A DNA stretch of 64,000 bases from an uncultured bacterium (GTDB lineage: Bacteria > Hydrothermota > UBA3072). Positions 26,164 to 62,200 of the stretch are shown piece by piece. Both the position numbers and the translations under genes were made by a program. The notes below the pieces were generated by a model, which saw only the letters and a list, made by a program, of their open reading frames with translations, was not told the DNA's origin and ran no database searches. The stretch spans positions 74,805 to 138,804 of the forward strand of contig CAZGHN010000006.1 of NCBI GenBank assembly GCA_964525555.1. Reading direction: 5' to 3'. Within the stretch, counting starts at the first letter, position 1. Each line of letters starts with the position of its first letter.

Positions 26164-26168
26164 TTTTA

Positions 26169-28970: not shown

Positions 28971-29060
28971 ATAGTCCTCCTTTTTTATTAATGAGTGTAA
29001 TAAGGGGTACCGAGTCTGTCAAGATGGGTTTAATTCTCACACTGAGACACAGAGACCAAA

Positions 29061-36783: not shown

Positions 36784-36913
36784 AAATCAAAAAAGATCTT
36801 AAAATACATTAACCACAGAGAACACAGAGGAATTAATTGTGATAAAAAAGAGAGAAACACCGGGAACACAGAGAAAAAACAAAAAGTTAATTAGTAATAT
36901 TATGATAGGTTAG

Positions 36914-42140: not shown

Positions 42141-42405
42141 ACAGTATATCAGTGAATTCGTGAATCAGTAAATTAGTATACTTATTTTACTAATAACTAA
42201 GTAATGTTGCCTTTGTGTGAGAAATTAGGTTTTAGGTCTTTGGTTTTGGGTTTTAGTAAAGAAGAAAATAAAATCTCTACATGTTCTACATGTTAAAAAT
42301 TAAATGGGGTGTGTTGTGTTTTAAATAAACACACATCATTCTTTTTTTCAGTGTGCTCTGAGTTTTTTTCTTTGTGCTCTCCGTGTCTTTGTGTGAGAAT
42401 CTATT

Positions 42406-44990: not shown

Positions 44991-45019
44991 ATTATGCGAA
45001 ATTTTACTCGATATGTCAA
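44991..45019 (-). promoter_or_regulatory. promoter TTGACA-N17-CATAAT for the S8 peptidase gene
   Basis: Minus strand GTGGCAAAA...TTGACA(45019-45014)...CATAAT(44996-44991); RBS GGAGG before ATG 44967. Confidence 0.45.
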
Positions 45020-45043
45020 TGGTTTATTTTGCCACGAAGACAA

Positions 45044-45180
45044 ACAAAAAACATTTAACACAGAGTACACAGAGAAAAACAAAAAACACAGAGATCACAG
45101 AGAAAAAACTATGTTTCGTGTTTTTAAAACCCAACCCGCCTCAGTTAATTTTTCACATGTAGAACATGTAGGTATTGTAG
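45044..45180. repeat. ~137-bp interspersed element (family R2): four CACAGAG boxes plus conserved block with CATGT-AGA-ACATG palindrome
   Basis: Over 90 percent identical to 60998..61134; both sit just upstream of promoters of secreted-protein genes. Confidence 0.8.
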
Positions 45181-45411
45181 TTTTGTTTTTTACAATTTAA
45201 CTATTTTTCTATTTAACAATTCAACTGATTCGAAGAATCTATAACACTGATTCACCGATTCACTATTTTACTGAATCACTGCTGTCTATTGATGCAATTT
45301 TTTCATAAGTGATACCGTTGATATTTTCATTGGTGACCCCAATTATACGCCAATTACGCAATTACAGAAGATTCAAAACCAATTTCATTGATATTGAATA
45401 TCAAAGTAATC

Positions 45412-46716
45412 TTAGTCAGATACCTTGGGTTCCCATAATTTTAGTTCGCTTATACATGCGTCATTATATTTGGAACCCTTGTATATATCTTTAATAATGA
45501 ATTTGACGGATTTAGTAACATGTGGTTCGATTTTAATCTTTTGTAAATCCATAGTATCTTTTAAATCTAGATTCATTGTTGAGCCATCCGAGAATGATAT
45601 CTCAAGGGTTTTTATTCTATTATTGGCATTAAATATGGCTTTTGATTTAGAGTAACCTGAAATGATATCAATTCTTTCGATATTATATTCCTCATCGAAA
45701 TCCAATTGTATCCATTCGCCTATACCGTCTCCTTCCGAACCTTCAACCCAGGCTGTATTATCATCATTATCAAATATATTGTCTATATCATATAAAAACT
45801 TGTTATTTTTATCGGTAAGAGTAGAAGAGCAGGTCACTTTCATATGATGTCTTTGAATTAACCCTTCGTTTTTCTTTAATTCCGCGATAATATTGTCTAA
45901 GTCTAACTCATAACAATCGACAAGTAGCCCGTTATCTCTGTTTTTCTCAAGGAAATCTATGACTTCCGGATTACAGATTTCTTCTATGTGAGAAAGGAAA
46001 TCATCAATTGGATAATAAACATCAGGTTTATTTATACTTTCTTCGAACGAATTAAGAATAAAATTAAGATTTTTCTCGTACTCATGATTGACCAGACAAT
46101 AAGCTTCCGCAATCGCTAATTCCTCTCTTATTCCCTTTGGCTTGAAATTCTTTAAAACTTCTACAATCCTTTTATCTCGTAATTCTGCCAATCTCCATAA
46201 AATTGGTAATGTAGATATATTTTTACTTTTAAACGGACCATCGAATGGACTCTTATTATCTTTATTGTGTAATTCATTATAGAGTTCTTGCATAAGATAG
46301 TCAAAAACTTTTGGTTTATTTATCTTCTCTAAAATAGATAAAGCAATATATAATGAATATTCACCTTTTTCGATATATCTCTTAACTTTACTATATAAAT
46401 TTGATTTTCTATCTGATGATATTTCTTTTAGAATCGACTCAAATAAATGTAATAATTTCTTTTCTTCAATATCGTCAGATAGCGAAAAGCTTTCAATTAT
46501 ACTTTTACTGGCTTCATCTGTACCAATCTCAATTAAATTTTCATAAGCTTGTTTTATTTTTTGATGATCTTCTTTGGTATTGATGCCTTCTGCAAGAATA
46601 TTTCTAATAATATTAGCGTGACGTTCAACATCTAAATCTTGTGATTTGTCTCCATTTGCTGATAATTGATAGCAAGAGCTAACAAAACATAGAATTATAA
46701 GGATACACGTTTTCAT
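45412..46716 (-). CDS. lipoprotein with helical N-terminal region and C-terminal galactose-binding/discoidin-like domain
   Basis: Lipobox LCFVSSC; C-terminal NTAWVEGSEGDGIGEWIQLDF...ISELKLW. Confidence 0.45.
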   Translation of the reverse strand: MKTCILIILCFVSSCYQLSANGDKSQDLDVERHANIIRNILAEGINTKEDHQKIKQAYENLIEIGTDEASKSIIESFSLSDDIEEKKLLHLFESILKEISSDRKSNLYSKVKRYIEKGEYSLYIALSILEKINKPKVFDYLMQELYNELHNKDNKSPFDGPFKSKNISTLPILWRLAELRDKRIVEVLKNFKPKGIREELAIAEAYCLVNHEYEKNLNFILNSFEESINKPDVYYPIDDFLSHIEEICNPEVIDFLEKNRDNGLLVDCYELDLDNIIAELKKNEGLIQRHHMKVTCSSTLTDKNNKFLYDIDNIFDNDDNTAWVEGSEGDGIGEWIQLDFDEEYNIERIDIISGYSKSKAIFNANNRIKTLEISFSDGSTMNLDLKDTMDLQKIKIEPHVTKSVKFIIKDIYKGSKYNDACISELKLWEPKVSD

Positions 46717-46784
46717 ATTCTATACTCCTTTTTTAGATTTAACGCTCAGTGTTAAGTAATTCATGGTTCTAAGATTTATCAGCG

Positions 46785-47738
46785 TTATTCCCAATAATAG
46801 TTGGGTCCGGCAAGGTCGGTTTTCGGATTAAACACCCGGGTGTTATCTGTTGGTGAAAGCAAAGATTGTAATGTATTATCTTCGGTAAACATTATATAAA
46901 TGTTATCTTCTTTAGGGTCGAAATCTTTGAAGTTCGCGTAAAAAGCTTTTTCATCTTCTCTGCTCATGAAAAGTACGCATCCTGCACTTTTTTCACCAAA
47001 GTGAAATAAACATAAAGTTTTATAATTTTTACCCGAGGCTGATTGAGTCACTGTTAATGAAATTTTAGTCCCTATTTCATTTGGCCACAAGTCTTTTCCA
47101 CCACGATCAGAAGCGTCAAGATTAGCTATATAAAGTGGAACTCCCTTGTTGGTTTTTGTAAATGTATTACTTTCCTTAAACACACCAGCATATTTAACAT
47201 TTGATGGCACAGATAAATATGGCTTGCCATTTTCTGCTGATGTATTTGCTTGACTATTTACCCTAAATTGAGAATTTAAGATAAATTTGTCATCCGCTGT
47301 CAGCCTTAGATTATCACAGTAACCTCCCGAATACCCAACATAATTCCTTACTACATTAATATTATAATCGGTTAAGCCACCAAGGTCAATTCGATTAATC
47401 GGATCATTTGTCGCGTACACATAAGGATTTAGACTTTGTGGGCCGGTTAAAAATAAATCTTGAGGCATAAGCGTATGCGGATCAGGGGTTATAAATCTCC
47501 CGGTATTACTGCTATAATACCTTGCTCCAAAGTAATTGAATCCAGACTTATCTTTTTCCTTTCCGGTGAAATCCCTATTGTCTTCAAGTGTTCCTGAAGT
47601 GCTTAAATTTATACCAAAACTCTCATATGACTTCTCCTTCACAATATCATCCTCATCTGTAATCATAATGGGGGAACCCAGTCTGTCAAGATGATAGAAA
47701 TACAATTTCCCATCCTTTTCTTTGGCAAGGAGGCGGTT
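46785..47738 (-). CDS. orphan rhs C-terminal cassette (start-less): core end (YFYHLDRLGSP...DPINRIDLGGL) plus unique toxin tip
   Basis: Frame opens directly after a stop; homology to rhs begins at NRLLAKEKDGKLYFYHLDRLGSP; no ATG or RBS. Confidence 0.6.
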   Translation of the reverse strand, partial: NRLLAKEKDGKLYFYHLDRLGSPIMITDEDDIVKEKSYESFGINLSTSGTLEDNRDFTGKEKDKSGFNYFGARYYSSNTGRFITPDPHTLMPQDLFLTGPQSLNPYVYATNDPINRIDLGGLTDYNINVVRNYVGYSGGYCDNLRLTADDKFILNSQFRVNSQANTSAENGKPYLSVPSNVKYAGVFKESNTFTKTNKGVPLYIANLDASDRGGKDLWPNEIGTKISLTVTQSASGKNYKTLCLFHFGEKSAGCVLFMSREDEKAFYANFKDFDPKEDNIYIMFTEDNTLQSLLSPTDNTRVFNPKTDLAGPNYYWE

Positions 47739-47755
47739 TTAAAAGAATTTAATAT

Positions 47756-48781
47756 TTATTTTTTAAGGTTAACCAGAAAAACTTTGTCCTTTGAATCTTT
47801 ATCACGCATTAAAAAAACTATCTTCAAACCATCAGGAGACCATTTAGCTGCATGGTTTTTCCTGTATTCTTCTTTGAACCCAAATATTTTCACTGATTTT
47901 CCGGTCTCTAAAGAATATATAAAGACTCCTTCGATAGTTGAATATACCAATTTTTTATCATCCGGAGAAAATGCGCCTGGTGCGAAACCTGGTAGGTATC
48001 GAAAATTATCATCGTTAAAACTAAATAACTTAATATATTTTAAAGTATTAACATTGTAAATCCAATATTCATAAACCGAATTCTCATTTTCAGAAGGCCG
48101 ATAACTAGCATAAAATAAGAACATATTTCCGTCCGAGGACCATACTGGATCCGGATAAGCGGATTTTAAGTCTGTAAGACCGGGAATAACTACTTTTTTG
48201 AATTTCTGCTCTTCCAGATTAAAAAACCACATTCTTTCATCGTAATTTGGTTCTCCCGTCAATGAATCCCTTGGATTACATAAGTCTATAACAATAAAAA
48301 GATCGGTCCGAGTTCCAAAATTTATAGCGCTATTATCGCTGGCATACCTTTGGAATCCCTCAGGGAGACTAACGCTTTTCTTCTCTCCTGACGGATATTT
48401 TATTCTAAGTGTATCTTTATATATCCTGACCACGTATTCCCTGCAGGGACTTACAGCCCAATCATATCCAAACTTCTTAATCGTGTCTACATCAAAGACT
48501 TCTTTTATATTCTCCTTGTTCTTACAATTATCATAGTATAATCTTATAAACTCCATTTCATTAATGCGTAAAGAATCTTTAGTTTCCAGGTCAAGAAGAT
48601 AATATTCGTTATAAGGTTTATATATGGTTTTACCAGAACCTCTATATAGGATTTTATTGGATTCAGTCCACTCATATAGGTATTCTATCTTGTCCGCTTC
48701 AAATATTGCCTGAGCTTTGTAATAGTCAGAGCTACACATACTTATGGTTAGACAGATTAAATTAAGATTAAATAGAAACAT
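47756..48781 (-). CDS. PD40/TolB-like beta-propeller lipoprotein (candidate immunity protein)
   Basis: Start at ATG 48781 with RBS GGAGGA; lipobox LTISMC; repeated SPDG/SSDG motifs. Confidence 0.55.
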   Translation of the reverse strand: MFLFNLNLICLTISMCSSDYYKAQAIFEADKIEYLYEWTESNKILYRGSGKTIYKPYNEYYLLDLETKDSLRINEMEFIRLYYDNCKNKENIKEVFDVDTIKKFGYDWAVSPCREYVVRIYKDTLRIKYPSGEKKSVSLPEGFQRYASDNSAINFGTRTDLFIVIDLCNPRDSLTGEPNYDERMWFFNLEEQKFKKVVIPGLTDLKSAYPDPVWSSDGNMFLFYASYRPSENENSVYEYWIYNVNTLKYIKLFSFNDDNFRYLPGFAPGAFSPDDKKLVYSTIEGVFIYSLETGKSVKIFGFKEEYRKNHAAKWSPDGLKIVFLMRDKDSKDKVFLVNLKK

Positions 48782-48862
48782 CTTGTTTCTCCTCCAATTT
48801 TTCATTTTTTTATATTAAAGATAATACATTTCTATACTTATTCATACTTACCTTAACTCATT

Positions 48863-50383
48863 TCACAATGGAGAAATATAAGGTTCAGGCTCGAAAGACT
48901 CAAAAATCGCTTGCGGTGGATCTTTCATTACTTCGCAATCCTCAGGCGTCTCTTCTGAATCATTCTTTTCGAGTTCATCAATTTGACCTGTTAAATCTTT
49001 CATATCATCATTTGATAACCTTATACACCCATTGGTAGCCCTCAGTTCTTCTGTAGCCTCGGAGAGTTTTCCTCCATGGATTCTAAATAAATCACGATTA
49101 GACTTCTTTGCTTCGCCTGATTTTGGGTCAAGAAGTATTTTTCCGTTAGGACCAAAAGAGCTTAATTTTTTCCCTGTCAATTTCGATGTACTTTGTCTTC
49201 CTGTTATGTCGTAAGTTCCGTAAGGGGTATCTCCATTTTCAGCCATCCTGTCTCTATGATTTCCTCTCCCTAAGGCATCCCAGCTTTTAACAACAATTCC
49301 CTGTCTATTGCGTAAGTATAACCTACCAGTCGTACTACGGTCGTCAGAAAAAGCAACATCTATAGACCATAAACCATTCGGGTCTACACGCGTAAGTGGC
49401 GCATTTAAACAATACACATAAGGATTCAGTTCCTGTGGGTTAGCTAACTTCAATCCTCCAGGCATCAATGTATGCGGATCGGGGGTCAGGAATCTTCCGA
49501 TACTACTACTATAATACCTCGCACCAAAGTAATTGAATCCAGACTTATCTTTTTCTTTACCGGTGAAATCCCGATTGTCTTCGTTAACACCCGTACTACT
49601 AAGGGCAGTACCGAAACTCTCATAAGATTTTTCCTTCACAATATCATCCTCATCTGTAATCATAATGGGGGAACCCAGTCTGTCAAGATGATAATAATAG
49701 ATGTGTCCGTCTTCATCTTTGGCAAGGAGACGGTTTCCCGCATAGAAATACTTCTTCGGAGGAGTTCGCTCTGAACCCGATTCGCATCGGGCGTTATCCA
49801 CCCATAATTTTCCGCCGCCTAACATTCTTGCTATATGAAACTTAAAATTAGCCGCGCCTGAAGGGATATCTCCAGGATTTATCGTTACTGAAATCTTCAT
49901 CCAGTTATTTGTGCCTGTTATTATAGCCGATGATTTCCCTCCGAAACTCTGGGACCAATCCGCACTCCAGAAATCGACCATTACTTTCACTCCTCCCGAT
50001 AGATTTTGAGTCTTTACCCAGACGGAAGCGGTAAAGGGTTTTTTTACCTCTGATAATGAATTATGCTGTATCATGAGTTCCGTTGTGCCCATAGATTGAA
50101 AGAATGGGGAGTATAGGCAATATTTACCTTCCTGGGATTGCTGGGAGGTCACAGACCAATTAAAATCACCTTCCCATTGTCCCCAGCCCGTCTTATCTCC
50201 TGTTTCAAATCCGGGATTTTCAAGAATATTAGGTGAATCATCATCTTCTAAGATGAGGTTGCCCGCGTTATCATGGAAATAATTAATTATTTCAGTATTC
50301 GAAGTAGGACAGTCGGTGATCTCCTGACGAATTCTCGGATATCCTTTATAGGAATATTTATAATTACACAAATATGTCCCGGA
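48863..50383 (-). CDS. orphan rhs C-terminal cassette (start-less): CBM4/9-like domain, rhs core end, L,D-transpeptidase-fold toxin tip
   Basis: Homology to full-length rhs from YKGYPRIRQEIT onward; YYYHLDRLGSP...DPNGL; tip contains HGG-x17-TNGCIRL (YkuD catalytic signature); only a TTG at 50371, no RBS. Confidence 0.6.
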   Translation of the reverse strand, partial: SGTYLCNYKYSYKGYPRIRQEITDCPTSNTEIINYFHDNAGNLILEDDDSPNILENPGFETGDKTGWGQWEGDFNWSVTSQQSQEGKYCLYSPFFQSMGTTELMIQHNSLSEVKKPFTASVWVKTQNLSGGVKVMVDFWSADWSQSFGGKSSAIITGTNNWMKISVTINPGDIPSGAANFKFHIARMLGGGKLWVDNARCESGSERTPPKKYFYAGNRLLAKDEDGHIYYYHLDRLGSPIMITDEDDIVKEKSYESFGTALSSTGVNEDNRDFTGKEKDKSGFNYFGARYYSSSIGRFLTPDPHTLMPGGLKLANPQELNPYVYCLNAPLTRVDPNGLWSIDVAFSDDRSTTGRLYLRNRQGIVVKSWDALGRGNHRDRMAENGDTPYGTYDITGRQSTSKLTGKKLSSFGPNGKILLDPKSGEAKKSNRDLFRIHGGKLSEATEELRATNGCIRLSNDDMKDLTGQIDELEKNDSEETPEDCEVMKDPPQAIFESFEPEPYISPL

Positions 50384-50405
50384 CTAAAATGTGTAGTTAA
50401 GTGAT

Positions 50406-50726
50406 CTACTCGATTTCTATCTCAATCCCGCCTATTTTTCGGGAAAGGAAATTGTAGAAAAGTCCTCCTAATAATCCAAATAAAAATCCACCAGTACCAT
50501 ACATAATTGGAAATAAAATGAAGCTTACTCTTCTATATATCCAGGATAGTATTGTCCCAGACAGCATAGGAGAATATCTTCCATATTCTGTTCCTATATA
50601 TATGCCTATTATTACGCCTGGAATAAGATAAAGAAAAGCGCAAATCTTCGCTACTGAAAGTACTCCTACTTTTTTTATCTCTACTACCTTTTTACCCTGT
50701 AATTCTTCTTCTTGTAAAGCTATCAT
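50406..50726 (-). CDS. small two-TM membrane protein (candidate immunity protein)
   Basis: 106 aa with two hydrophobic helices; lies between toxin cassettes. Confidence 0.4.
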   Translation of the reverse strand: MIALQEEELQGKKVVEIKKVGVLSVAKICAFLYLIPGVIIGIYIGTEYGRYSPMLSGTILSWIYRRVSFILFPIMYGTGGFLFGLLGGLFYNFLSRKIGGIEIEIE

Positions 50727-50742
50727 TATTTATTATCCCCTG

Positions 50743-51834
50743 TTATTTTTGAGGATACCAGGAGATTTCTCCGCAAGAATAAGCGTGAATCCCTATAATT
50801 TTTCTCTTATTTGTCCCGTTGTTATTCATAACCCAGATTTCAGTATATTTATCATCCTCTATCTCTTCTACAATATATGCGATAAATTTATCATCAGGTG
50901 ATACCATGGGAGAATACTCATATATATCTGGCGAATTTGTCAGGTTCTTTTGGTTTTTACCATCACTATCCATCACAAAAATTTCACTTGGGAAATCTTT
51001 GGTTTCCCTTTTTATACTCCAGTCTATACATCTGCTAAAATAGATTTTCTTGCCGTCATTAGACCAACAAGGATCAAAATCAGGAAGATTATTATTTGTC
51101 AGTCTTTTATATTTTCCGTTCTCTATATTTATTACAAAGATCTCTGAGATAGAAGATTCAAAGGCAGTTCTACTTAGAGAGTCCGGAAGGGTGTAAGGGA
51201 GCCTTGTTTGTTCCGCTTCTAATTGTGTACTAAAAGCAATTTCTTTTTCATCCGGAGAAAGAGCAAAATCACCATAAAAGTTAGCTAATTCAGGACTTAT
51301 TTTCATGGCATTAAAAGAGATTTTGGACTGGACAGTGTCATGAACTATAAACTCATATCCGTCAAGATTAAATATAATCTTTCCTGAAGAAGTAGGTGCT
51401 ATAGAACAAATAATTCCATCTAGGTCTTTATATTTCTCTCTCTCGCTTTTTGGAAGGTTTTCCCAGCATCTAATTATTCTTCTTGTTCCCGTTGTATTCA
51501 TAATATAAATATCTGGATCATCTTGCCAACCCACAATACCATCGTCATATAAACCGGTCTCAAACCTTGTCCCAAGAAATAAAATTCCCGAGCCATCTGG
51601 TAACCAGACAGGATCTTCCAGAGGGTATCTTGTATTAGTTAACTGATATAGAGTATGAGGCGAATCTACTTTAACTGCAAATATCTGGGGATCTTTAATC
51701 GGATTACTGTTTGTATCCGCGGTAAAGAGTATAGTATTTGTGAAATCCACATTAGCCGGCAATTTCTCTACTTCAGCGTTACATCCGGTTAAGATTACAA
51801 TGAAAAGAAAGAAGACATTTATTTTTTTAATCAT
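50743..51834 (-). CDS. PD40/TolB-like beta-propeller lipoprotein (candidate immunity protein)
   Basis: Start at ATG 51834 with RBS GAGGAG, 11 nt after the stop of cassette 51845..53086; lipobox ILTGC; repeated LPDG/SNDG/SPDD motifs. Confidence 0.55.
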   Translation of the reverse strand: MIKKINVFFLFIVILTGCNAEVEKLPANVDFTNTILFTADTNSNPIKDPQIFAVKVDSPHTLYQLTNTRYPLEDPVWLPDGSGILFLGTRFETGLYDDGIVGWQDDPDIYIMNTTGTRRIIRCWENLPKSEREKYKDLDGIICSIAPTSSGKIIFNLDGYEFIVHDTVQSKISFNAMKISPELANFYGDFALSPDEKEIAFSTQLEAEQTRLPYTLPDSLSRTAFESSISEIFVINIENGKYKRLTNNNLPDFDPCWSNDGKKIYFSRCIDWSIKRETKDFPSEIFVMDSDGKNQKNLTNSPDIYEYSPMVSPDDKFIAYIVEEIEDDKYTEIWVMNNNGTNKRKIIGIHAYSCGEISWYPQK

Positions 51835-51844
51835 TATGCTCCTC

Positions 51845-53086
51845 TTACCAGTTTTGAATATCCTGAGGTATGACTTGAATATTTCCGTTATCATAAGACC
51901 CAATTGGACTATAACCACTAACTGCGTTATAATGTTGAAGGAAATCATTATCATATTTGCCTCCACCTCTTTTAATAAGACTCTTCGGATCTTTTCCTCG
52001 ATGTACTTCCTTTACAAATTTTTTCATTCTTGCAAGTTCTATCTCTGCTACCTCTGCTCCGTTCTTCTGGTCTTTATAAACTTTACTAAGATCTAGCCGG
52101 TCGTAACCCTCATAACCTGGCACTATTGCTTCCTCATGTTTGTGAGCAAACATTCCCATGCAGATTTTATCTATATCCCCTTCGCGGATTGTATTCATAG
52201 TACTAAAAAGGGTAACAATTCCCCAGAAAGCAGTAGTTGGAACGCCGGTAAATGCCGCCCCAGCCCAAAACCAATCTTCACCTGTTACAATTTCTGCGGA
52301 GGGGTAAGGTATCTCTTCAGGAGCTGTGGTTAAAGCTCCTGGGAAACGTCTCCTAAGGGTTAAAAATACACTACCCATTGGTACTATCGAACCAGCTGTT
52401 TCAGCCGTCCCTCGACCCAAAGTTACCCTATATACCATATTATCTGTAGTAGTGCGGAATAGGCCTTTCTTATCCACATAATACAACGGATCATTTGTGC
52501 AATAAACATACGGATTAAATGTTTGCGGGTCCGAAAGTTCCAAATTCCCCGGCATAAGCGTATGCGGATCAGGGGATATAAATCTTCCGGTATTACTACT
52601 ATAATACCTCGCACCAAAGTAATTGAATCCCGACTTATCTTTCTCTTTACCAGTAAACTCCCTATTATCCTCATGAGTCCCACTTGATGAGACCACCGCT
52701 CCAAACCCTTCATACGTTTTATCTTTCACAATATCATCCTCATCTGTAATCATAATGGGGGAACCGAGTCTGTCAAGATGATAATAATAGAGATGACCGT
52801 CTTCTTCTTTGGCAAGGAGACGGTTTCCCGCATAGAAATACTTCTTCGGAGGAGTTCGCTCTGAACCCGATTCGCATCGGGCGTTATCCACCCATAATTT
52901 TCCTGAACCGGATAGTTTTATAAGCATTACCTTAAGGGCTTCTACTTCCCATTCGGGCATATTTCCTTCATCTACCGTTAACAATATCTTTTGCCAGTTG
53001 TTTGTTCCTGTTATTGGATTAGATGTTATAAATTTGTTATGACCGATAGAGAGTAAGAATTGTCCAATGTCGAGATGCGACCCCAA
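51845..53086 (-). CDS. orphan rhs C-terminal cassette (start-less): partial CBM-like domain, rhs core end, unique toxin tip
   Basis: YYYHLDRLGSP...NDPLYYVDKKGL; frame opens after stop at 53087-89 (TTG only); 5' end abuts tandem repeat 53079..53151. Confidence 0.6.
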   Translation of the reverse strand: MGSHLDIGQFLLSIGHNKFITSNPITGTNNWQKILLTVDEGNMPEWEVEALKVMLIKLSGSGKLWVDNARCESGSERTPPKKYFYAGNRLLAKEEDGHLYYYHLDRLGSPIMITDEDDIVKDKTYEGFGAVVSSSGTHEDNREFTGKEKDKSGFNYFGARYYSSNTGRFISPDPHTLMPGNLELSDPQTFNPYVYCTNDPLYYVDKKGLFRTTTDNMVYRVTLGRGTAETAGSIVPMGSVFLTLRRRFPGALTTAPEEIPYPSAEIVTGEDWFWAGAAFTGVPTTAFWGIVTLFSTMNTIREGDIDKICMGMFAHKHEEAIVPGYEGYDRLDLSKVYKDQKNGAEVAEIELARMKKFVKEVHRGKDPKSLIKRGGGKYDNDFLQHYNAVSGYSPIGSYDNGNIQVIPQDIQNW

Positions 53087-53151
53087 TTACACACGACCCC
53101 AATTACACGACCCCAATTACAACCCCAATTACACACGACCCCAATTACACA
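53079..53151. repeat. tandem repeat, about five copies of a 13-16-bp unit GACCCCAATTACAC(AC)
   Basis: Direct reading of 53079-53151, ending in inverted GGGGTC. Confidence 0.8.
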
Positions 53152-53576
53152 AGGGGTCAACTTTATTGTATCCAAATTTAAAAATCACTTTGCTGTGATC
53201 AATATAAAATAATTTGCTGCGATTAATAATCCCCTCCTTAATTTAAGATTCTTTATAATTAAAAAATATGTATTTGAAAATAAATGTCAATAGTGGTATG
53301 CAGGGAATATATCGAACGAAGAATTATAAAAAATAGAAGAGGAATCACCCAGAAATGTTTTTAATATTAATTTAAACAGGAGGTAAAAAAAGATTAATTT
53401 AACCCCACCCCTTGACACTTTTCAAAGAAGGTCTGACCCTGTTGCCCCCACTGTTGCCCCCAGAGAAAAGAACGCACGTTAATCTTGACCCTAGATACAT
53501 AGATACACTCATTATACTCCAGCATCATAATCTTAAACCCTTGATTTTTATTTGTAAACCAATATTATTAAAAGAC

Positions 53577-54755
53577 ATGAAAGAAGTAAATTTAGGAAAG
53601 AGAATAAAAAAACTGTTCCTTTTTCATATAGTATTTCTTGGTGTAATAGTATTTATTTCGTGTTCACGAGAACAAGGAAACAATGCAACAGTGAAAGTTG
53701 AAATTCCAATCGATTCTAAATCTAATATATATGAACTAATTTTAAAAGAAAAAATTGATTTTAGTCATTTAATCAAAAAAGCTGACTCATTATTTGATGT
53801 TGGAGAATATGTTAAAGCCGAATCTCTATATAATAAAGCGCACAATCTTTCGCTGGAATCCGGTAATAAAAAATTAATCGGAGTTACTTTAATTGGTATC
53901 GGAGCGTCTAAAGATAGACAATTTGAATATGAAGAAGCCATTGAGATATTTAACAACACAATGGAATATAAAAGTTTAATGGATAATCCTAGTTTATATC
54001 TATTGTTTTTTAACAAAGGTGTTTCTTTACAAAAAACAGATAAGCTGGAAGGCGCATTAAATTCATATAAGAATGCAATTCTAATAGATTCTAACTTAAC
54101 GGAAGCTTACATTAATCTGGCAAAAATTTACTATAGTGAAAATCAAAAAGATAAAGCATTTAAGGAACTTTCTAAAGCGATTGATTTAGGTTCTAAATAT
54201 TATGATGCTTACTTAGGAAGAGGTATTATCTATCTTAAGAAAGAAGAATATCAGAAAGCTTTAAAAGACCTCAATTTCGCTATAAAGCTGAATCCAAAAT
54301 CTGTTAAAGCCTATAAAGCACGTGGAATGATTTATGGCGATGAAGGAAAGATTGAAAAAGCTTTATCTGACTTTAATAAAGCTATAGAATTGGAACCCAA
54401 AAATTCCGACCTTTATTCTTTAAAAGCGTTTATTTTTTACGAAAAGGAAAGTTACAATAAAGCTCTCCGAAACTTAAATAAAGCAATTGAATTAAATTCT
54501 AATTCTCACAAAGATTACCACCTTAGAGGTATTATTTATGGGAAGAAAGGTAAATATGATCAAGCAATAGATGAATTTACCAAAGCAATCAATTTAGAAC
54601 CCCAAAGTTATGAATCATATTATTTCAGAGGTTTGTCTTACGCTAATAAAGGTAATTATAAAGAAGCAATAACTGATTACAAAAAAACATTAGATTTGAA
54701 TCCAAGATTTGATGAAGCACAGGAAAGGCTAAGAGAATTAAAACAATTTAAGTAA
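53577..54755 (+). CDS. TPR-repeat lipoprotein
   Basis: Start at ATG 53577 (signal/lipobox VFISCS) instead of track TTG 53412; at least eight TPR-like 34-aa repeats. Confidence 0.65.
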   Translation: MKEVNLGKRIKKLFLFHIVFLGVIVFISCSREQGNNATVKVEIPIDSKSNIYELILKEKIDFSHLIKKADSLFDVGEYVKAESLYNKAHNLSLESGNKKLIGVTLIGIGASKDRQFEYEEAIEIFNNTMEYKSLMDNPSLYLLFFNKGVSLQKTDKLEGALNSYKNAILIDSNLTEAYINLAKIYYSENQKDKAFKELSKAIDLGSKYYDAYLGRGIIYLKKEEYQKALKDLNFAIKLNPKSVKAYKARGMIYGDEGKIEKALSDFNKAIELEPKNSDLYSLKAFIFYEKESYNKALRNLNKAIELNSNSHKDYHLRGIIYGKKGKYDQAIDEFTKAINLEPQSYESYYFRGLSYANKGNYKEAITDYKKTLDLNPRFDEAQERLRELKQFK

Positions 54756-54957
54756 GCTTAAAACAAAGAAAATATAAGAAATTATTATAACTTCGATTAT
54801 TTATTAAATATATCAGTAGTTGTAGTTTATATTTGAAGTTTTTCTGTCGTTCTCTCTTTTTATCTCCTCTAAATCATGTTGCAGAAATATAAGACATCTA
54901 ATATAGTTTTTTTAAGTATTTTTTAGTAAAACGAACTACGGCTATCTCCTTTCTAGC

Positions 54958-55233
54958 TTACATTGTTTTAATAAAAACATAAAAAAGAAAAAATCCTATA
55001 CAAACGCAAAGAAAACCCATTACCCTAATGTATATAATATACGATTTGCTTTTCACCCAATCTACATAGGAAGAAATATCAACGTAACGATTCCGATTGA
55101 ATATAGACATATTATATATGGCTAAATTTTGAGTCTTATAGGGGAACAGCAATACTAATACCCCCACACTGATGAGAAAGAAACCGAATAACAGAACCTT
55201 CACATTAACAAGATTTTCTGAACCCATTGGCAC
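54958..55233 (-). CDS. small two-TM membrane protein immediately after rhs (candidate immunity protein)
   Basis: 91 aa, two hydrophobic helices; starts 16 nt after the rhs stop. Confidence 0.45.
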   Translation of the reverse strand: MPMGSENLVNVKVLLFGFFLISVGVLVLLFPYKTQNLAIYNMSIFNRNRYVDISSYVDWVKSKSYIIYIRVMGFLCVCIGFFLFYVFIKTM

Positions 55234-55248
55234 TCTCTCCTTTAAATC

Positions 55249-58200
55249 TTACCACTCAATTTCTTCAAACCTATAAATCTTCCCAGAATCCCAGTAATAA
55301 GTCGCACCTAACATAGGAACATAAACACCACCTTCCGTAGTCCAACCACTTCCAAAGAAATAATCTCCTTGAACGCCAATTATAGAGCCTCCGGCTGTCT
55401 CAATAGACTTTCTGGTCAGGCATTTTGAAAGTTCGTCTTCAGTTGGCGCTCGACGCCATCGGTTCATCTTACACATAGTACCCGCTGACAAACTACCAGA
55501 TAAAGGTATTAAAGATTTTCCCAGCTGTGGGCCATGTCCAAAGTACACATTCCCATACCTATCCAACTTTAAATTTATACTATATCCAATAATAGATCCT
55601 AAATTAATAGTAAGATTAAGATAATCAGGCCATTGTCCTCTCCAAAACTCATTAACAGCTTCTTGCATCGTAGGTCCTTGATAAATACCAAGATAAAAAC
55701 CCAAATAATTGAAAAAATGATACGGATCCATACTTGATGCGGTAACGATAATAGGATCCATTAAAAATATATCATCACCTATTTGGGTCGGTTCCAATCC
55801 CCATGGGTCAAAGAAATTTACTGGATCGTTATGGCAATACACATAAGGATTAAGTGTCTGCGGACGCTCTAAATTCACAAGTAGTGGATACAAGTTAATC
55901 GGATCAGGTGTAAAAAACCTACCGATATCCGCACTGTAATACCTCGCTCCAAAATAATGGAAACCGGTCTTATCTTTTTCTTTCCCAGTGAATTCACGGT
56001 TGTCATTATATGTACCATTGGACCAGCGTAAATTCCCAAACGCCTCATATAATCTTTCTTTTACAACATTACCATCTTCATCTGTTATCATAAGCGGTGA
56101 ACCGAGACGGTCAAGATGATAAAAATGAAGGTCTCCGTCATTTTCAGTCGCAAGAAGACGGTTCCCCGCATAGATATATCTTTTGGGAGCTGTAGTCTCA
56201 CTATCGTCATCCTCGAGAATGAGATTACCCGCGATATCATAGAAGTAATTAAAAATTTCCTTAGTTCCTGCCGGATACTGTGTAATTTTCTGTCTTATTC
56301 GCTGACTCCCTTTGTAATAATAATTGTACACTCTATCGGTTTCCATTGAATTAAGCGAAACAAGATTTCCATCCACATCATAGGTAAGACTGGCATCTTC
56401 CGAGACGCTGGTAAATCCATTTATCCTGCCATTTTCATCGTATGAATAGTTAAATTCACCGTCATTCTTTAACCTGTTGGTTCCGGAATAATAAGTATAA
56501 TTAGTACTATTGACGCTTTTCCTATTTCCGACCGTATCATAGGTGAAAATGAGTGTGTAACCCGGAATATAGGGATAACGACCGTAATAAATATTTTTCT
56601 TATCCTGCGTAAGTCTTCCGAGTTTATCGTATTGGTAAGATTTTACAATATCTCCAGGCCCGTCATCATGCCTGACTTCTTGATACACCTCTCCTCGTTT
56701 ATTGTAGCAAAATTGTGCTATATAGGGGTTGGCGGAAGGAATATTCTTTATTTCCATCCAGTACATCCAATTCCTTGGTCTATATGCAAATGTATCGGTA
56801 ATTCCACCGGGGAAATTTATGCCTCTTAAGAGGCCTGCTGCTGTGGATGAAAGATTGATCGTTTTGTAATCGTTAATTTCTACCGACGAGATATTGCCAA
56901 GTTTATCATATTCATATTCGACTTTGTACTCGTCCGGGTATTCCAGTTTAGTTAATCTTCCCCACAGATCGTAGGAATATTTGAATGTCTGTTCATCTAT
57001 ATCACCAATTAATGGTATTACAAGCTTTTCCCCAAGGTTTCCGAATTTATCGTAAAAATATACTTCCCTTACATTTGGATTTTGGAAACCCGTAAGTCTT
57101 CCTTTTGGAAAATTTAATCCTGAAGGTGCAGTATAAGGTGTACCTTTTATAGTATAGTTATCGTAGAAATATTCCTCCAGTGTATCAGGGAAAAACATGT
57201 AGCTTAATGAATCGTTTGTTATCACAAGGACTGATTTAATTGAATCTAGCCAGTTTTGTGATCCATGTGCAGGATAACCAGGAATAGCGGAATCAGTATG
57301 TTGGATCGCCATCCCACAAATAGTATTCCCAATATAATCCTCGCCTGGGTAAAGAAGAAAAGAATGATCTTGTTGCCAGGTTTTATTAATTGAAGAAAAG
57401 CCTTCTTGAATGGTGAACTCGCTACCAAAAGTATCGGCCGGATTTTCGAAATACACGAATAATGAACATATTCCGAAATAATTAGGAGGGTCAAATACCC
57501 AGGTTTTTGAATTAAATCTTATCCTTATCTCTTCACCTTCATCTTGCATTACATTTGCATCCTCAATGTCCCAGTATAGCCGACCAAGTTCGCGGTGGGG
57601 ATACATCCAGCTTTTACCAGGCACATACAATAAAGTGTCTTCAACCATATAGAATAGTGTATCCGGAGCAGGATCATGTATAGCCGGATTGATTTTGGTT
57701 TTTAATCTACCAAGATTATCATAAGTATAATAGATTGAATCACCGATATTTGTTCTACGAAGCTTTAAATTCCCATCAGGATAATATTCGAATGAATCTA
57801 CGCCTCTGTCAGGACCTTCTCTACGGATTAGTTCACCTAACCAGTTATAGTTAAAATCAGTGAATTTTCCTTCTGCGCCTTCAATTTCTATTAAGTTTCC
57901 GTTTGCGTCGTAATCGTAATAAGTATGATAATCGAGAGCATCTATGACCTCTACCAAGCTGCCTGTTGCATCGTTAATTAATGTGGTATAATATCCTTTC
58001 TCATCTCTTACATCTGTTATATTCCCATTATATTCATAGGTAACAAATTCGGCTCCAGGATCTTCAGAGCTTTTGGGATATTCTATCTCGGTTACTCTTC
58101 CAAGTGCATCGAAAGTCTTTTTTACTGTGTCCGCGTTTGCTGCACTGTTAAACCGTAGTGCTGTTTCCTTATTCATACGCCCATTATTATCATAAAAATA

Positions 58201-60846
58201 TTCCTTTATTACATGCTCGCCAGGATCTCCTAATACCGAATCTTGTTTAAGCCTTCCTAACTGGTCGTAACAGTAGATTATAGTGCTTGAGTCCGAAGAA
58301 GAAGAAAAAGATTTTGCTTTTGCAATCCTGTCGAAATCGTCATATTTATATTTGTTTAAAACATCGCTGCCGATTTTATCCAGAGTAAGTCTTCCGTAAC
58401 AATCATATTCGAATTCTCTTGAAACTTCATTCTTATCAGTGTGCCCTATAAGTTGCCCATCCGAATTAAAGTCGAAGTCCTCTTTTGAGCCATCAGGATA
58501 TATTACTGTGTCAGGGAATACCTCATTAGAACAGTAATCGAATTGAGATTCCTCTCCCATGTAATCTCGCATTTTTACTAGATTCCCGCAAATGTCATAC
58601 CAGTATTCCTGTGTACGGGATTCGGAATTGTTTGTCCATTCTATTTTCTTGGTGAGGTTCCCGCGGATTTTAAAATCAGCACCAAAGTCTTCAGAATCAT
58701 GAAAACCCGGGTTAGAAATGTTGCTTAAATTAGTTTCATCATACCGAAAATAAGTTTTTCCTATTCTTTGTCCTGTAATTTTAAATTTGTGTATTGCTAT
58801 CGGAAGATTGCACAACACACGATGATGGAAATTCCAACCTCCTTCTCCACCATAGCAATCCTCACACCATTCTGCAAGCTCGATATATAGAGCATCTACT
58901 TCATGTTTAAAATGCTTTATCTCTTTCCAGCTGTCATCTAAATCCAGGTCCTCGTAAGAAATTTTTTCGTTATCAACCTTATCTAAGTCTAAGCCTGGCA
59001 TAATAGCTGTAGTAAATACAGTTAGCAAGTATGGAAAATCAAATTCTTCAATACTTTCCCATCCTATACCTGTACATTCCACATCCCCTCGATAAATGTA
59101 TTCTCTTATATTACCAAACCTATCATAACTGTTATATTCGTATAGTTCTACAATATCTCCAATACCTACCTCAAGATCAGATGGATCTTTCTGTACGGCT
59201 TTGCATTTCAATGTTGGGCGTAAATGAATTGGCGGCATAAACAAATAGAGACTATCTATTGCCCAATATAAACGCGTCAATTCTAAAGTGTCTCCTTCTT
59301 TATCAAATTTTACTACCTTGTAAGGTTTACCGTAAATAAATTTCCTTGCCTTAGGGATGACCCTTTCGGAGATTACCACCTCATCTCTACCTTCATGTTC
59401 GAAAAATCTGTAATGATCCCCATTCTCCAGATATTCATTATTAATATGCCAGTAAACTATACTATCTCCTTCGGGCATAACAACCGCGCATTTTTTATAC
59501 ATGGGATAATATCCAAATATTTGCGAATTTACCCCATGAGACCAATTATCTTTAAAATCTCCATGAGTACATTCCATTTCACCTACAGAACTCACCGCGA
59601 GTGAATCATGACCTGGATAATGATATTCATACACTAAAGTTTTGGAATCCTCAGAAAGAAAAACTTCTTTCTTTTTGATTCTGCGGTATTTGGTAGGCGC
59701 GGCGATGCCTGAGCCAGACACCGTCTCATACTCATAACTGTATTCCGCGCCGTCAGGAGTGATAAATCTGACGAGTTCCCCTGTATTATTATCATAAAAA
59801 AACTGATAAGAAGGTTTCATTTTTTGCCCTTCAAAATGAAAAGATATCGAATCCAGAAGTGCGTGTTCACGAACATACCAGTATTCAATTGCATCGTCTA
59901 AATGTTTAGCCGTATAGTAGAATTTAACCTTGTAACAACCATCGTTTATCCAATGAACTAAGCTATCAATAAGATAAAACTTATCCCAACAAGGCCTATC
60001 TGGGTAAATAGGGTCTAACATTTTAGGATAAAATTTACAGTGAGAGGTAGGAGTAATAATACTATCGGGGATTCTGCCAGCCGGAGGGCAAGGGGCCGCA
60101 TCCTGCCAGGTAAATCGCACATAATTGCCATTCCTGTCCTCCATCTCTGTTAGCATATAATCAAGTCTGCGTCTCTTCTCCGGTTCTGATGGGTACTCAG
60201 GATCGGGACCGTAATCCAGTATATTCTCGAAGGTATATTTATATTCTGGCGTTGCAACAAAAGCTCTAAGATTACTTGCGAAACCAATCCAATTTTTTTC
60301 ACCTAAAACATGCCACAACCAAGCATCAAAAACATTGAAAGTTTTTTGCACAGTGTAAAACTGCCCATTAATACACGTGAAACCCACATCGCCCGTAGCA
60401 ATATTGCCAGTTCCCGGGGATCCGGGAACAGAAAATTCTCCCGGCATTACATTCCAACCTAAACCACAGGTACCTATATCCCCAGTAACCAAAAAAGCAT
60501 CATTTAGCGCCACATTAGAATGCGAATAGCAATCACCTGGAGTGAGCTGCGTCACCGATAAGGGAGAACCTCGATAGGTTAAATATACATTATAATCTTT
60601 ATTTCCTCTCATTGGCAAACTTGTAAGTTTTATTTTGAGAGACACAGTCCCGTTTGAAACATCTATATTTTCCGCAACAGTATTAGTCGATATGGTCGTT
60701 TTGTTAAAACCTACCGAGTATGCATCAAAACCGTGTGAATACATATCCTCAGTAATTTCATCAGAGGTTTTTATTTCAAGCGAATCATAAGCGGCAAGGG
60801 GGTTAGCTACGGAACTCCCAATGTTGCCAAATAAAAATACTATCAT
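55249..60846 (-). CDS. rhs: full-length RHS/YD-repeat polymorphic toxin
   Basis: 1865 aa; many YD repeats (e.g. YEYDANGNLIEI); core end FYHLDRLGSPLMITDEDG...DPWGL followed by a ~230-aa unique C-terminal tip. Confidence 0.85.
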   Translation of the reverse strand: MIVFLFGNIGSSVANPLAAYDSLEIKTSDEITEDMYSHGFDAYSVGFNKTTISTNTVAENIDVSNGTVSLKIKLTSLPMRGNKDYNVYLTYRGSPLSVTQLTPGDCYSHSNVALNDAFLVTGDIGTCGLGWNVMPGEFSVPGSPGTGNIATGDVGFTCINGQFYTVQKTFNVFDAWLWHVLGEKNWIGFASNLRAFVATPEYKYTFENILDYGPDPEYPSEPEKRRRLDYMLTEMEDRNGNYVRFTWQDAAPCPPAGRIPDSIITPTSHCKFYPKMLDPIYPDRPCWDKFYLIDSLVHWINDGCYKVKFYYTAKHLDDAIEYWYVREHALLDSISFHFEGQKMKPSYQFFYDNNTGELVRFITPDGAEYSYEYETVSGSGIAAPTKYRRIKKKEVFLSEDSKTLVYEYHYPGHDSLAVSSVGEMECTHGDFKDNWSHGVNSQIFGYYPMYKKCAVVMPEGDSIVYWHINNEYLENGDHYRFFEHEGRDEVVISERVIPKARKFIYGKPYKVVKFDKEGDTLELTRLYWAIDSLYLFMPPIHLRPTLKCKAVQKDPSDLEVGIGDIVELYEYNSYDRFGNIREYIYRGDVECTGIGWESIEEFDFPYLLTVFTTAIMPGLDLDKVDNEKISYEDLDLDDSWKEIKHFKHEVDALYIELAEWCEDCYGGEGGWNFHHRVLCNLPIAIHKFKITGQRIGKTYFRYDETNLSNISNPGFHDSEDFGADFKIRGNLTKKIEWTNNSESRTQEYWYDICGNLVKMRDYMGEESQFDYCSNEVFPDTVIYPDGSKEDFDFNSDGQLIGHTDKNEVSREFEYDCYGRLTLDKIGSDVLNKYKYDDFDRIAKAKSFSSSSDSSTIIYCYDQLGRLKQDSVLGDPGEHVIKEYFYDNNGRMNKETALRFNSAANADTVKKTFDALGRVTEIEYPKSSEDPGAEFVTYEYNGNITDVRDEKGYYTTLINDATGSLVEVIDALDYHTYYDYDANGNLIEIEGAEGKFTDFNYNWLGELIRREGPDRGVDSFEYYPDGNLKLRRTNIGDSIYYTYDNLGRLKTKINPAIHDPAPDTLFYMVEDTLLYVPGKSWMYPHRELGRLYWDIEDANVMQDEGEEIRIRFNSKTWVFDPPNYFGICSLFVYFENPADTFGSEFTIQEGFSSINKTWQQDHSFLLYPGEDYIGNTICGMAIQHTDSAIPGYPAHGSQNWLDSIKSVLVITNDSLSYMFFPDTLEEYFYDNYTIKGTPYTAPSGLNFPKGRLTGFQNPNVREVYFYDKFGNLGEKLVIPLIGDIDEQTFKYSYDLWGRLTKLEYPDEYKVEYEYDKLGNISSVEINDYKTINLSSTAAGLLRGINFPGGITDTFAYRPRNWMYWMEIKNIPSANPYIAQFCYNKRGEVYQEVRHDDGPGDIVKSYQYDKLGRLTQDKKNIYYGRYPYIPGYTLIFTYDTVGNRKSVNSTNYTYYSGTNRLKNDGEFNYSYDENGRINGFTSVSEDASLTYDVDGNLVSLNSMETDRVYNYYYKGSQRIRQKITQYPAGTKEIFNYFYDIAGNLILEDDDSETTAPKRYIYAGNRLLATENDGDLHFYHLDRLGSPLMITDEDGNVVKERLYEAFGNLRWSNGTYNDNREFTGKEKDKTGFHYFGARYYSADIGRFFTPDPINLYPLLVNLERPQTLNPYVYCHNDPVNFFDPWGLEPTQIGDDIFLMDPIIVTASSMDPYHFFNYLGFYLGIYQGPTMQEAVNEFWRGQWPDYLNLTINLGSIIGYSINLKLDRYGNVYFGHGPQLGKSLIPLSGSLSAGTMCKMNRWRRAPTEDELSKCLTRKSIETAGGSIIGVQGDYFFGSGWTTEGGVYVPMLGATYYWDSGKIYRFEEIEW

Positions 60847-60943
60847 TAATAAATTCGTTTAATACCTCCTTACTAAATATTGTTTCCATAAAAATTAATT
60901 AACATGTTATAATTTTGATAATTTTAGTAACATTACAAAAATT

Positions 60944-60980
60944 ATTGTAGGGAAAATGAAACTTTTGTCAAGAGGTTTTT
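60944..60980 (-). promoter_or_regulatory. promoter GTGGCTAA-N9-TTGACA-N16-TACAAT for rhs
   Basis: Minus strand reading of 60980-60944. Confidence 0.45.
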
Positions 60981-60997
60981 TTAGCCACACCCACCAC

Positions 60998-61134
60998 CAA
61001 AAAACATTCACCACAGAGAACACAGAGAAAAAGAAAAAACACAGAGCACACTGAGAAAAAAACTATGTTTCGTGTTTTTAAAACCCAACCCACCTCAGTT
61101 AATTTTTCACATGTAGAACATGTAGAAATTGTAG
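60998..61134. repeat. ~137-bp interspersed element (family R2), copy upstream of rhs
   Basis: See 45044..45180. Confidence 0.8.
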
Positions 61135-61253
61135 ATACTGTGTTCTCTTTGATTATTTTACTAATTAACAAATATACTAATCAACCAATTAACAGATTCG
61201 AAGAATTTTTGAATCTAAATCAAAAGATGCAATTTTTTCTTAGGCGGTACCAA

Positions 61254-61826: not shown

Positions 61827-62200
61827 TGCATTATCCTCCTTTTTTATTAATGATTTTAATAAGGGTGTCCAAGCCTGTCAAGATGGGTTGAATAAGGTTA
61901 GGTTGTTAGAAGGTTAGGTGGTTTCAAAAAAAATCCGATCCAACAGTGTTTTATAACTAGTTCCTGGTACCCGGTACCTGATATCTAAAATTGACCATAG
62001 AGATCGCAGAGATTTTTAAATGTTGGTCTGTTGATCTGTTAGTCTGTTTTTTCCCCACCTACACACTAACTTTATTTATCTTTTGACCCATGACTCAAGA
62101 CGCGGGACTCACCGACTCGGTTGAAATTGTCAAGCGTTGAGATTTACCCCCAATTATTTACGTATGTACCCTCGTCTATATGAGAAGATCGTCTCTCGTG

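Follow-up and report, generated by a model that had tools for sequence, protein, structure and literature searches.

R2 elements beside an S8 peptidase gene and an RHS gene of an uncultured bacterium probably belong to a modular intergenic repeat family with a conserved core

Main finding

The window analysed in this study is a 64-kb stretch of contig CAZGHN010000006.1 from an uncultured bacterium, in which two copies of a repeated element, R2, lie in front of the genes of an S8 peptidase (42406-44967, minus strand) and an RHS protein (55249-60846, minus strand). We found that R2 belongs to a noncoding family that is dispersed over many genomes and is indifferent to the identity and the direction of the neighbouring genes. 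R2 is probably a local subfamily of a modular repeat family scattered through the intergenic DNA of WOR-3-type bacteria (WOR-3 is the phylum Caldifarciminota in the current NCBI taxonomy). The family would resemble either the repetitive extragenic palindromes (REP) and bacterial interspersed mosaic elements (BIME) or the BOX elements, with a core that is recognised by a putative protein. There is no evidence for a regulon of secreted proteins.

Copies of R2 in the window

Alignment of positions 45044-45180 (copy A) with 60998-61134 (copy B) gave 126 identical columns out of 138 (91.3%) with one internal indel, in agreement with an earlier sequence-only reading, which had recognised two copies of about 137 bp with more than 90% identity. 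Weaker similarity extended the copies to about 45022-45239 and 60974-61207, reaching the -35 hexamers of the adjoining promoters at the left and a GATTCGAAGAATC hairpin at the right, and the full composite length of R2 was 190-230 bp. The two copies are direct repeats 15,954 bp apart, and their 91% identity points to an unusually recent duplicate pair. The copies and their modules are as follows (L numbers denote loci outside the window).

45022-45239, plus strand: R2 copy A, the full composite element, which can be aligned to copy B and to composites of L019, L015, L020, L009, and L016
45059-45102, plus strand: box array of copy A, four CACAGAG in two pairs of 9-bp tandem units
45103-45148, plus strand: "U-unit" tail of copy A, consisting of an A-run, CTATGTTTCGTG, TTTTTAAAAC, and a C-rich G-free block, common to the family
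45149-45191, plus strand: core block of copy A, TTTTT-C-ACATGTAGA-ACATGTAGG-TATTGTAG and then a T-run
45192-45239, plus strand: right-hand modules of copy A, a ACAATTTAAC..AATTCAAC array and the GATTCGAAGAATC hairpin at 45227-45239
60974-61207, plus strand: R2 copy B, the full composite upstream of the RHS promoter, with boxes at 61012-61055, the core at 61103-61134, and GATTCGAAGAAT at 61195-61206
61135-61148, plus strand: 14-nt insert ATACTGTGTTCTCT of copy B only, complementary to the box array at 61012-61025 and able to form a long hairpin with it
42226-42400, minus strand: R2 copy C, inverted and diverged (71-74% identity to A and B), its modules in the same order

The left edge of copy A abuts the -35 hexamer of the S8 promoter and its right end is the GATTCGAAGAATC hairpin; its right-hand modules are about 75-90% identical to those of L019, L015, L020, and L009. 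Exact CACAGAG boxes start at 45059, 45068, 45087, and 45096 in copy A, and at 61012, 61021, and 61040 in copy B, where the variant CACTGAG follows at 61049. The earlier count of four boxes per copy is therefore exact for copy A and includes one variant in copy B, and the leading A of ACACAGAG is present in some boxes only. The box spacing of 9, 19, and 9 bp indicates two pairs of tandem 9-mers and not the helical phasing of 10.5 bp, so that the roughly helical arrangement suggested before had to be abandoned. The core of copy A is made up of three 9-bp TGTAG units and includes an ACATGT-AGA-ACATGT hairpin or palindrome. This palindrome, CATGTAGAACATG, had been reported for copies A and B and was exact in both; a further match on the minus strand at 42280-42292 had been overlooked. 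When the folds were compared with shuffled sequences, copy B with its insert had a z of -4.2 and copy A, which has no insert, a z of -1.05. Long-range pairing of the flanking arrays was dropped as a family trait, being seen in copy B only.

Copy C, with the exact core TTTTTAACATGTAGAACATGTAG at 42277-42299, occupies the spacer in which topA and the S8 gene converge with their 3' ends, a place devoid of promoters. Its orientation and position mean that C and A form inverted repeats on either side of the S8 gene. Contigs assembled from short reads of the same strain (Logan) stop at 42371-42399 and 45132-45148, within C and A, as assemblers do at multi-copy sequence.

Anatomy of the family

From left to right, the elements are composed of a box array, an A-run, TAT, a T/G-run, TTGTTTAAAAC, a C-rich G-free block, the core, a T-run, a second array, and a hairpin. 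The block TTTTT-N-ACATGTAGAACATGTAG-N4-TGTAG followed by a T-run was present in at least eight related metagenome-assembled genomes (MAGs) and in metagenome contigs, and its near-invariant core was TTTTT-N-ACATGTAGA-ACATGTAG-N4-TGTAG and then a T-run, with three tandem 9-bp units. When the copies were anchored on the core, the conserved block extended from about -30 to +37, and G accounted for 3% of the 20 nt before the core. In about 20 of 54 copies, TTGTTTAAAAC was found 29-34 nt to the left of the core, preceded by the T/G-run, TAT, the A-run, and the box array. The box units are 7-9 nt long and differ from copy to copy (CACAGAG, CACGGAG, CACGAAG, CACAAAG, CACAAGATT, and CAGGATT), and the flanks show a periodicity of 7-9 nt. 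On the right side, the second array (ACTAATTAAC..) is followed by the GATTCGAAGAATC hairpin (GATTC/GAATC), the pairing of which survives one compensatory change and G-U wobbles when the copies are compared.

The copies differ in module content and are between about 45 and 230 bp long, or longer. The smallest (L006, L018, and L024) are reduced to T5-core-T-run. U units may also lack a core and be arranged in tandem, as at L055, where three to four units stand in a row, one of them with a core. Relative to the orientation of the core, C exceeds G over about 200 nt.

Apart from the 6-bp ACATGT/ACATGT hairpin, the core has no secondary structure; folded as DNA, 61 nt give -5 kcal/mol and a z of about -2.4. 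In a few copies, an inverted core about 34 nt after the core gives rise to an 18-bp hairpin (z = -5); such doublets were found at L019 (twice), L010, and possibly L009 and L063, amounting to about 4-6 of the 56 cores, the others being singletons. Over 275 columns, the consensus fold amounted to only -6 kcal/mol and two tiny hairpins, and copy A folded no better than shuffled sequences (z = -1.05 and -1.5). The whole window had no Rfam match at the gathering threshold, a permissive scan of the element returned only two chance hits to small nucleolar RNAs (E of about 3), and a tRNA scan of the window found none. No terminator-like site was detected in or beside copies A and B, where the weak hairpin and the T-run are 9 nt apart. 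Three motifs (TTNACA-18-TGTAGT, TTGTTT...AAATT, and one resembling TATAAT before GTTTAAAAC) were considered as internal promoters and rejected, none of them having a proper -10/-35 pair at a fixed spacing. A reverse-strand G-quadruplex was likewise rejected on inspection, the number of G-tracts being inconsistent between copies.

Distribution across genomes and genomic context

An exact scan for the 22-mer TTTTTNACATGTAGAACATGTAG with one genome per species gave 25 exact sites in 8 MAGs, one of which is labelled candidate division WOR-3. CAZGBM01 had 16 exact sites, CAYYUB01 four, CAZRYJ01 two, and five other MAGs one each. A profile built from the exact sites detected further diverged copies in the same 8-kb loci (3-5 per 8 kb, maximum five), and a metagenome scan added 23 loci. 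The non-redundant core copies numbered 56. As a negative control, viral contigs were scanned with the 17-mer core, and each of the 16 hits stood in an unrelated context and lacked the T5/TGTAG/T-run frame; accordingly, a viral origin was dropped. BLAST searches against plasmids and phages gave no match to the element.

The cores were almost exclusively intergenic: 54 of the 56 lay outside open reading frames (ORFs) of at least 80 codons, in loci that are 17% noncoding (P = 6e-39). Where a core had genes on both sides, the spacer was convergent in 14 cases, tandem in 19, and divergent in 10, which equals the random expectation of 1:2:1. Intergenic box-pair arrays (n = 39) were followed by a core in 12 cases; 18 of these arrays face the 5' end of a gene and 18 a 3' end, and one comes directly after a tRNA. 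The neighbouring genes include rnpA, purD, apgM, alr, queA, and those for ornithine/aspartate carbamoyltransferase (OTCase), biotin ligase, and secreted type IX secretion system (T9SS) and RHS proteins. These spacer proportions, the counts of gene ends, and the mixed neighbours show that the elements have no link to promoters, terminators, or any gene class.

Similarity between the window and the loci at the DNA level was limited to the elements (70-85% over 60-190 bp), with the exception of one syntenic contig, L046. Furthermore, composite subfamilies recurred at non-orthologous sites of different genomes. The family thus has the general properties of a dispersed intergenic repeat, being multi-copy, noncoding, and present at non-orthologous sites in several genomes.

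Retention and turnover at orthologous sites

In the spacer between rnpA and the aldose-epimerase gene, three species with flanking proteins of 74-89% identity have kept the element, unchanged in place and orientation. This spacer also has a conserved promoter and terminator and an invariant core with T-run, and the flanking modules are swapped. The number of CACGGAG units in the rnpA box array differs between two close relatives. In the box array upstream of rnpA, L007 (4213-4228) and L021, two close relatives with 92% nucleotide identity, differ by exactly one 8-nt CACGGAGA unit, providing direct evidence that the arrays change by slippage. In CAZGBM01, 25 cores are intact while their flanks average about 37% ungapped identity; decayed cores also exist.

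L046 is syntenic with window positions 7461-18392 (77-81% nucleotide identity) and carries cores in two spacers that are coreless in the window; in one of them the window holds the other modules. At 12171-12722, the window contains a gene for a 115-aa 23S rRNA-intervening-sequence protein (PF05635) with inverted TTCAAAATTCAAAA-type arrays on either side, and this gene sits where L046 has a TGTAG-core element.

The S8 peptidase falls into a tight orthologue group (60-78% identity), one member of which is annotated from a WOR-3 bacterium. The orthologue of CAZGBM01 keeps the RluD-topA/S8 synteny, which together with the WOR-3 member assigns the organism of the window to the same lineage, and the S8/topA spacer of CAZGBM01 contains a U unit without a core. 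In four relatives including CAZGBM01, with S8 orthologues at 66-73% identity, the promoter and the 5' untranslated region (UTR) are kept and the boxes and the core are absent; upstream homology with the window reaches through TAAATGTTTTTT..TCTTCGTG. These alignments indicate that the S8 promoter does not need R2 in the relatives. The spacer comparisons likewise indicate that modules are gained, lost, and changed in copy number between relatives.

Adjoining promoters and partial elements in the window

The promoters that adjoin copies A and B are as follows.

44991-45019, minus strand: S8 peptidase promoter TTGACA-17-CATAAT, kept at orthologous loci without R2
60944-60971, minus strand: RHS gene promoter TTGACA-16-TACAAT

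Both are near-consensus sigma-70 promoters (11 of 12 positions), and copies A and B touch their -35 regions, as the position directly upstream of the promoters given in the sequence-only reading implied. The location of R2 in front of them is probably incidental. Any effect of R2 on neighbouring promoters may be local and incidental, in that R2 would supply at most an A-tract at -38 to -50, acting like an UP element.

Between copies A and B (45181-60997) lie the main RHS gene with its promoter and, downstream of it, orphan RHS-tip and immunity-like cassettes. A coding repeat of 340-570 bp with 63-88% identity is present in five copies (47373-47739, 49370-49936, 52460-53026, 55795-56164, and 63254-63823); it corresponds to the conserved end of the RHS core and occurs in the full-length RHS gene and in several shorter RHS-tip ORFs. 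The RHS-tip ORFs have different C-terminal domains, such as YkuD/Tlde1, and form a typical orphan toxin cassette array. About five tandem GACCCCAATTACAC(AC)-like units lie at 53085-53165, in the spacer between an RHS-tip ORF and a tetratricopeptide repeat (TPR) gene. In the relatives, the upstream neighbour of the S8 gene differs (V-ATPase genes, DUF6057, or endonuclease V), and the RHS cluster therefore borders a lineage-specific rearrangement.

CACAGAG occurred 18 times in the window against 3.0 expected, a six-fold excess that none of 100 shuffles reached. Fourteen of the 18 were noncoding, though only 11% of the window is noncoding (P = 7e-11), and the four in coding DNA equal the chance expectation. 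The motif enrichment expected from the sequence-only reading was thus borne out within the window, and the random distribution at similar density in coding regions that would have spoken against it was not seen. The other CACAGAG sites that it had listed were also confirmed (25115, 26588, 26634, 29048, and 36814-36873). Since 17 of the 18 sites were on the plus strand, polarity with respect to the replication strand was considered and dropped: GC skew tracks gene orientation, intergenic skew is inconsistent, and neighbouring cores are co-oriented in 11 cases versus 6. Apart from copies A, B, and C, the window contains the following partial elements.

36814-36873, plus strand: coreless box array (CCACAGAGAACACAGAG ... 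AACACAGAG), flanked by parB and an M23 peptidase gene
26588-26690, plus strand: boxes and U-unit tail (GCCACAAAAGACACAGAG..TTTTTAAAGCTCAACGCAC) without a core
25106-25121, plus strand: box pair (CAGAGAGAACACAGAG) beside the D7 hairpin repeat, upstream of a minus-strand NHL-repeat gene
29035-29054, plus strand: box pair (CACTGAGACACAGAG) beside the D6 repeat, 8 bp upstream of a minus-strand -35 hexamer
6365-6460, minus strand: coreless modules (GATTCGAAGAATC, AATTCAAC array, T-run, GCCACGAAGACACTAAGACAC boxes, and C-rich block) upstream of thi4

At the site matching 6365-6460, the syntenic relative L046 carries a core. The parB gene (35974-36783, Pfam) is just upstream of the array at 36814-36873 and is preceded by an unannotated ORF (35223-36005). 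The parS scan of the window gave no site with fewer than three mismatches and a count at chance level, and parS was dropped as an explanation.

Several other repeats were observed in the window. The pairs 22658-22806/25127-25275 and 28204-28347/29061-29204 are 93% and 99% identical, respectively; they are GGATTA/TAATCC-type arrays able to form long hairpins, and the copies at 25127 and 29061 begin right after a CACAGAG box pair. Tandem coding repeats of 117-126 bp (23338-24815) lie within the gene of a 734-aa NHL-repeat/FlgD-Ig protein (22855-25059). The region 25873-27401, about 1.5 kb without an ORF of at least 100 codons, contains a promoter-like site on the minus strand at about 26500 and the coreless box/U unit. 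A 65-bp block of promoter and 5' UTR (TTGACA-17-TAAAAT with a GGAGG ribosome-binding site) is 85% identical between 28970-29034 and 61829-61893, and the genes behind it, of 176 and 190 codons and without a Pfam match, may be paralogues. Finally, a 112-bp repeat (427-538/2012-2123, 94% identical) stands in front of two different genes. It comprises an CATTCAAAATTCAAAA array and a complete TTGACT-N17-TTATACT promoter, and a copy at 85-87% identity was found in another MAG (L005, 1776-1843).

Alternative explanations

The sequence-only reading had proposed that R2 is a cis-regulatory module shared by the subtilase and rhs genes, in which a regulator would bind the CACAGAG array and/or ACATGT-N3-ACATGT and co-regulate both. 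Tandem direct repeat boxes resemble many operator arrays, copies A and B abut the -35 hexamers of strong promoters in the same geometry, and other box pairs of the window are located 10-70 bp upstream of minus-strand promoters of surface-type genes. However, copy C sits in a 3'-3' spacer without a promoter, and the family copies favour neither promoters nor a gene class, being found in random contexts with mixed neighbours. In addition, the box sequence varies among copies of one genome, the distance from the core to the -35 hexamer ranges from about 75 to 150 bp, and the S8 orthologues retain their promoter without the element. The operators of a regulon are confined to promoters, accompany a related set of genes, and are conserved together with the orthologous promoter; R2 showed none of these properties, and we consider the co-regulation very improbable. 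It is also improbable that R2 acts at the RNA level, with its G-poor forward strand transcribed as a small RNA, a Rho-loading site combined with a terminator, or an element for stability or 3' ends, whose features would be the ACAUGU hairpin, the U-run, and the GAUUC hairpin. The consistent excess of C over G for about 200 nt, the T-run after the core, and the GATTC/GAATC hairpin, which pairs through the compensatory change and the forward-strand G-U wobbles, are consistent with such an element, as is the finding that about half of the copies come straight after a stop codon or a tRNA. Against it stand the lack of an Rfam match at the gathering threshold or at E up to 5, the weakness of the consensus fold and of the fold of copy A, and the 23% of copies in divergent spacers without a convincing internal promoter. 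A terminator or Rho site, in particular, was rejected: the elements have no terminator-like GC stem, the rnpA spacer has a canonical terminator alongside the element, and some copies are found between divergent genes.

The second suggestion of the sequence-only reading, the end of a miniature mobile element, was correct in pointing to a dispersed repeat, whereas the copies proved to be whole composites and not ends. A classical MITE (miniature inverted-repeat transposable element), which would derive by deletion from an insertion sequence, bear terminal inverted repeats, and be moved by a DDE transposase, is extremely improbable. R2 is indeed small, multi-copy, intergenic, and disruptive to assemblies, and a 14-nt stretch of copy B matches, in inverted form, the box array of that copy; on the other hand, no inverted termini are common to the copies, target duplications are absent, the conservation peak is central and not terminal, length and module content vary widely, and no transposase was seen in the loci. 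Another explanation is a genome-wide DNA signal with a function for the host, in which the core with phased T-tracts would serve nucleoid architecture, DNA uptake, or recombination and be kept by selection or molecular drive, the flanking arrays being local sequence. This explanation is unlikely, though several observations agree with it: the core is invariant in at least nine genomes while the flanks are near saturation, the element is retained at the orthologous site in three species, it depends on neither context nor orientation, and minimal copies consist of T5-core-T-run. Nevertheless, copy number is uneven among relatives (16 exact copies in one MAG versus one in several), syntenic spacers of the window have no cores, decayed cores occur, and the flanks are themselves repeat modules conserved across genomes, which a pure site model fails to explain. 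Tentatively, and with considerable doubt, the 43-bp block TTTTT-N-ACATGTAGA-ACATGTAG-N4-TGTAG-T7 may be a functional genomic "punctuation" site of WOR-3/Caldifarciminota, read by a putative protein through 9-bp units of the ACA-NNN-AGA type and selected across species. The CACAGAG boxes fit the same ACA...AGA frame as the 9-bp units of the core. If this were true, the block would represent a new kind of chromosome-organising, uptake, or recombination signal and not selfish DNA.

A modular family of dispersed repeats remains the explanation that we prefer. Copies of this family may spread and be reshuffled by duplication, slippage, recombination, or mobilisation in trans, as REP/BIME or the pneumococcal BOX elements are, and the core of about 43 bp may persist because a putative sequence-specific protein recognises it. 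This protein could be a mobilising or recombining enzyme or a nucleoid protein. Several results weigh against the repeat-family explanation. An inverted-repeat scan of copies A, B, and C found no shared terminal inverted repeats, giving only matches of A/T-runs and an internal pair specific to copy B, and no target-site duplication flanks A or B. A clean empty site was not found among the orthologous spacers, and no precise insertion junction could be defined because these spacers differ by wholesale replacement of modules. The conservation of the core at an orthologous site across species suggests selection in place, an observation that suits a selfish element no better than a function for the host. 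Several related MAGs have a single exact copy, which is odd for an active mobile family and equally for a genome-wide signal, and no transposase or RAYT-like family recurred among the 348 ORFs in 412 kb of loci. Moreover, five of the six box clusters in the window lie just upstream of minus-strand promoters of genes for surface or secreted proteins, so that a local regulatory effect is possible.

Significance and comparison with known systems

The family described here belongs to an uncultured phylum, and searches of the literature for the motif, for repeats of WOR-3, and for Caldifarciminota found nothing relevant; no description was found in the searchable literature or in Rfam. Such repeats fragment short-read MAG assemblies, as in copies A and C, and can change the strength of neighbouring promoters. 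They also offer homology for rearrangement: in the window, the R2 copies would leave direct repeats of 137 bp around the RHS toxin cluster and inverted repeats around the protease gene as substrates. An invariant core of 17-43 bp across species suggests a dedicated binding protein, the isolation of which may give access to the DNA transactions of uncultivable organisms. The analysis further removes a tempting false lead, the regulon of secreted proteins.

In copies A and B, the tandem direct repeats and the A-tract upstream of the -35 hexamer are reminiscent of operator or iteron arrays and UP elements. Unlike such arrays, those of R2 also occur after stop codons and between convergent genes and are absent from the orthologous promoters. 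MITEs such as Correia/NEMIS and ERIC are likewise small, noncoding, dispersed elements that are able to carry or modify promoters (PMC3184786). The present family differs from them in the lack of terminal inverted repeats, target duplication, and uniform length.

REP sequences and REPINs consist of an imperfect GC-rich palindrome of 20-40 bp, which forms a stable stem-loop, with an unpaired 5' GTAG (or CGTC) tag (PMC3733652, PMC2817692). Many of their units occur as doublets of opposite orientation, they are situated mainly downstream of genes, in convergent or tandem spacers, and a cognate RAYT gene, for a Y1 HUH transposase, has the repeats on either side. Like the REP, BIME, and REPIN elements of Proteobacteria, the present family is short, high-copy, and extragenic and forms mosaic composites with other motifs (PMC3733652, PMC2817692). 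In both cases the core is better conserved than its surroundings and short-read assemblies are broken at the repeats. GTAG is also present here, three times at a spacing of 9 bp, overlapping or following the stem and not preceding it, and some inverted doublets fold into a long hairpin, most copies being singletons. In contrast to the REP palindrome, the core of the present family consists of 9-bp units, three in direct order, and its hairpin is AT-rich and only 6 bp long. There is, furthermore, no bias to 3' ends or convergent spacers (14/19/10), and no RAYT gene was identified among the ORFs of the loci.

The short tandemly repeated repetitive (STRR) heptamer arrays of heterocystous cyanobacteria are simple arrays without a conserved unique core or a fixed order of modules. 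They share with R2 the intergenic location, tandem units of 7-9 nt, a strand-asymmetric composition, and a variable copy number, whereas the R2 family has a unique conserved core and module order and its sequence is unrelated. The BOX elements of Streptococcus pneumoniae have the structure boxA-boxB(n)-boxC, with subunits of about 45 nt and a stable secondary structure. Their sequence is unrelated to that of the present family, which is almost without structure and has subunits of 7-9 nt. Nevertheless, both are modular intergenic elements of about 100-300 bp that have variable internal tandem subunits, encode no protein, and often lie near promoters, where they may incidentally affect expression.

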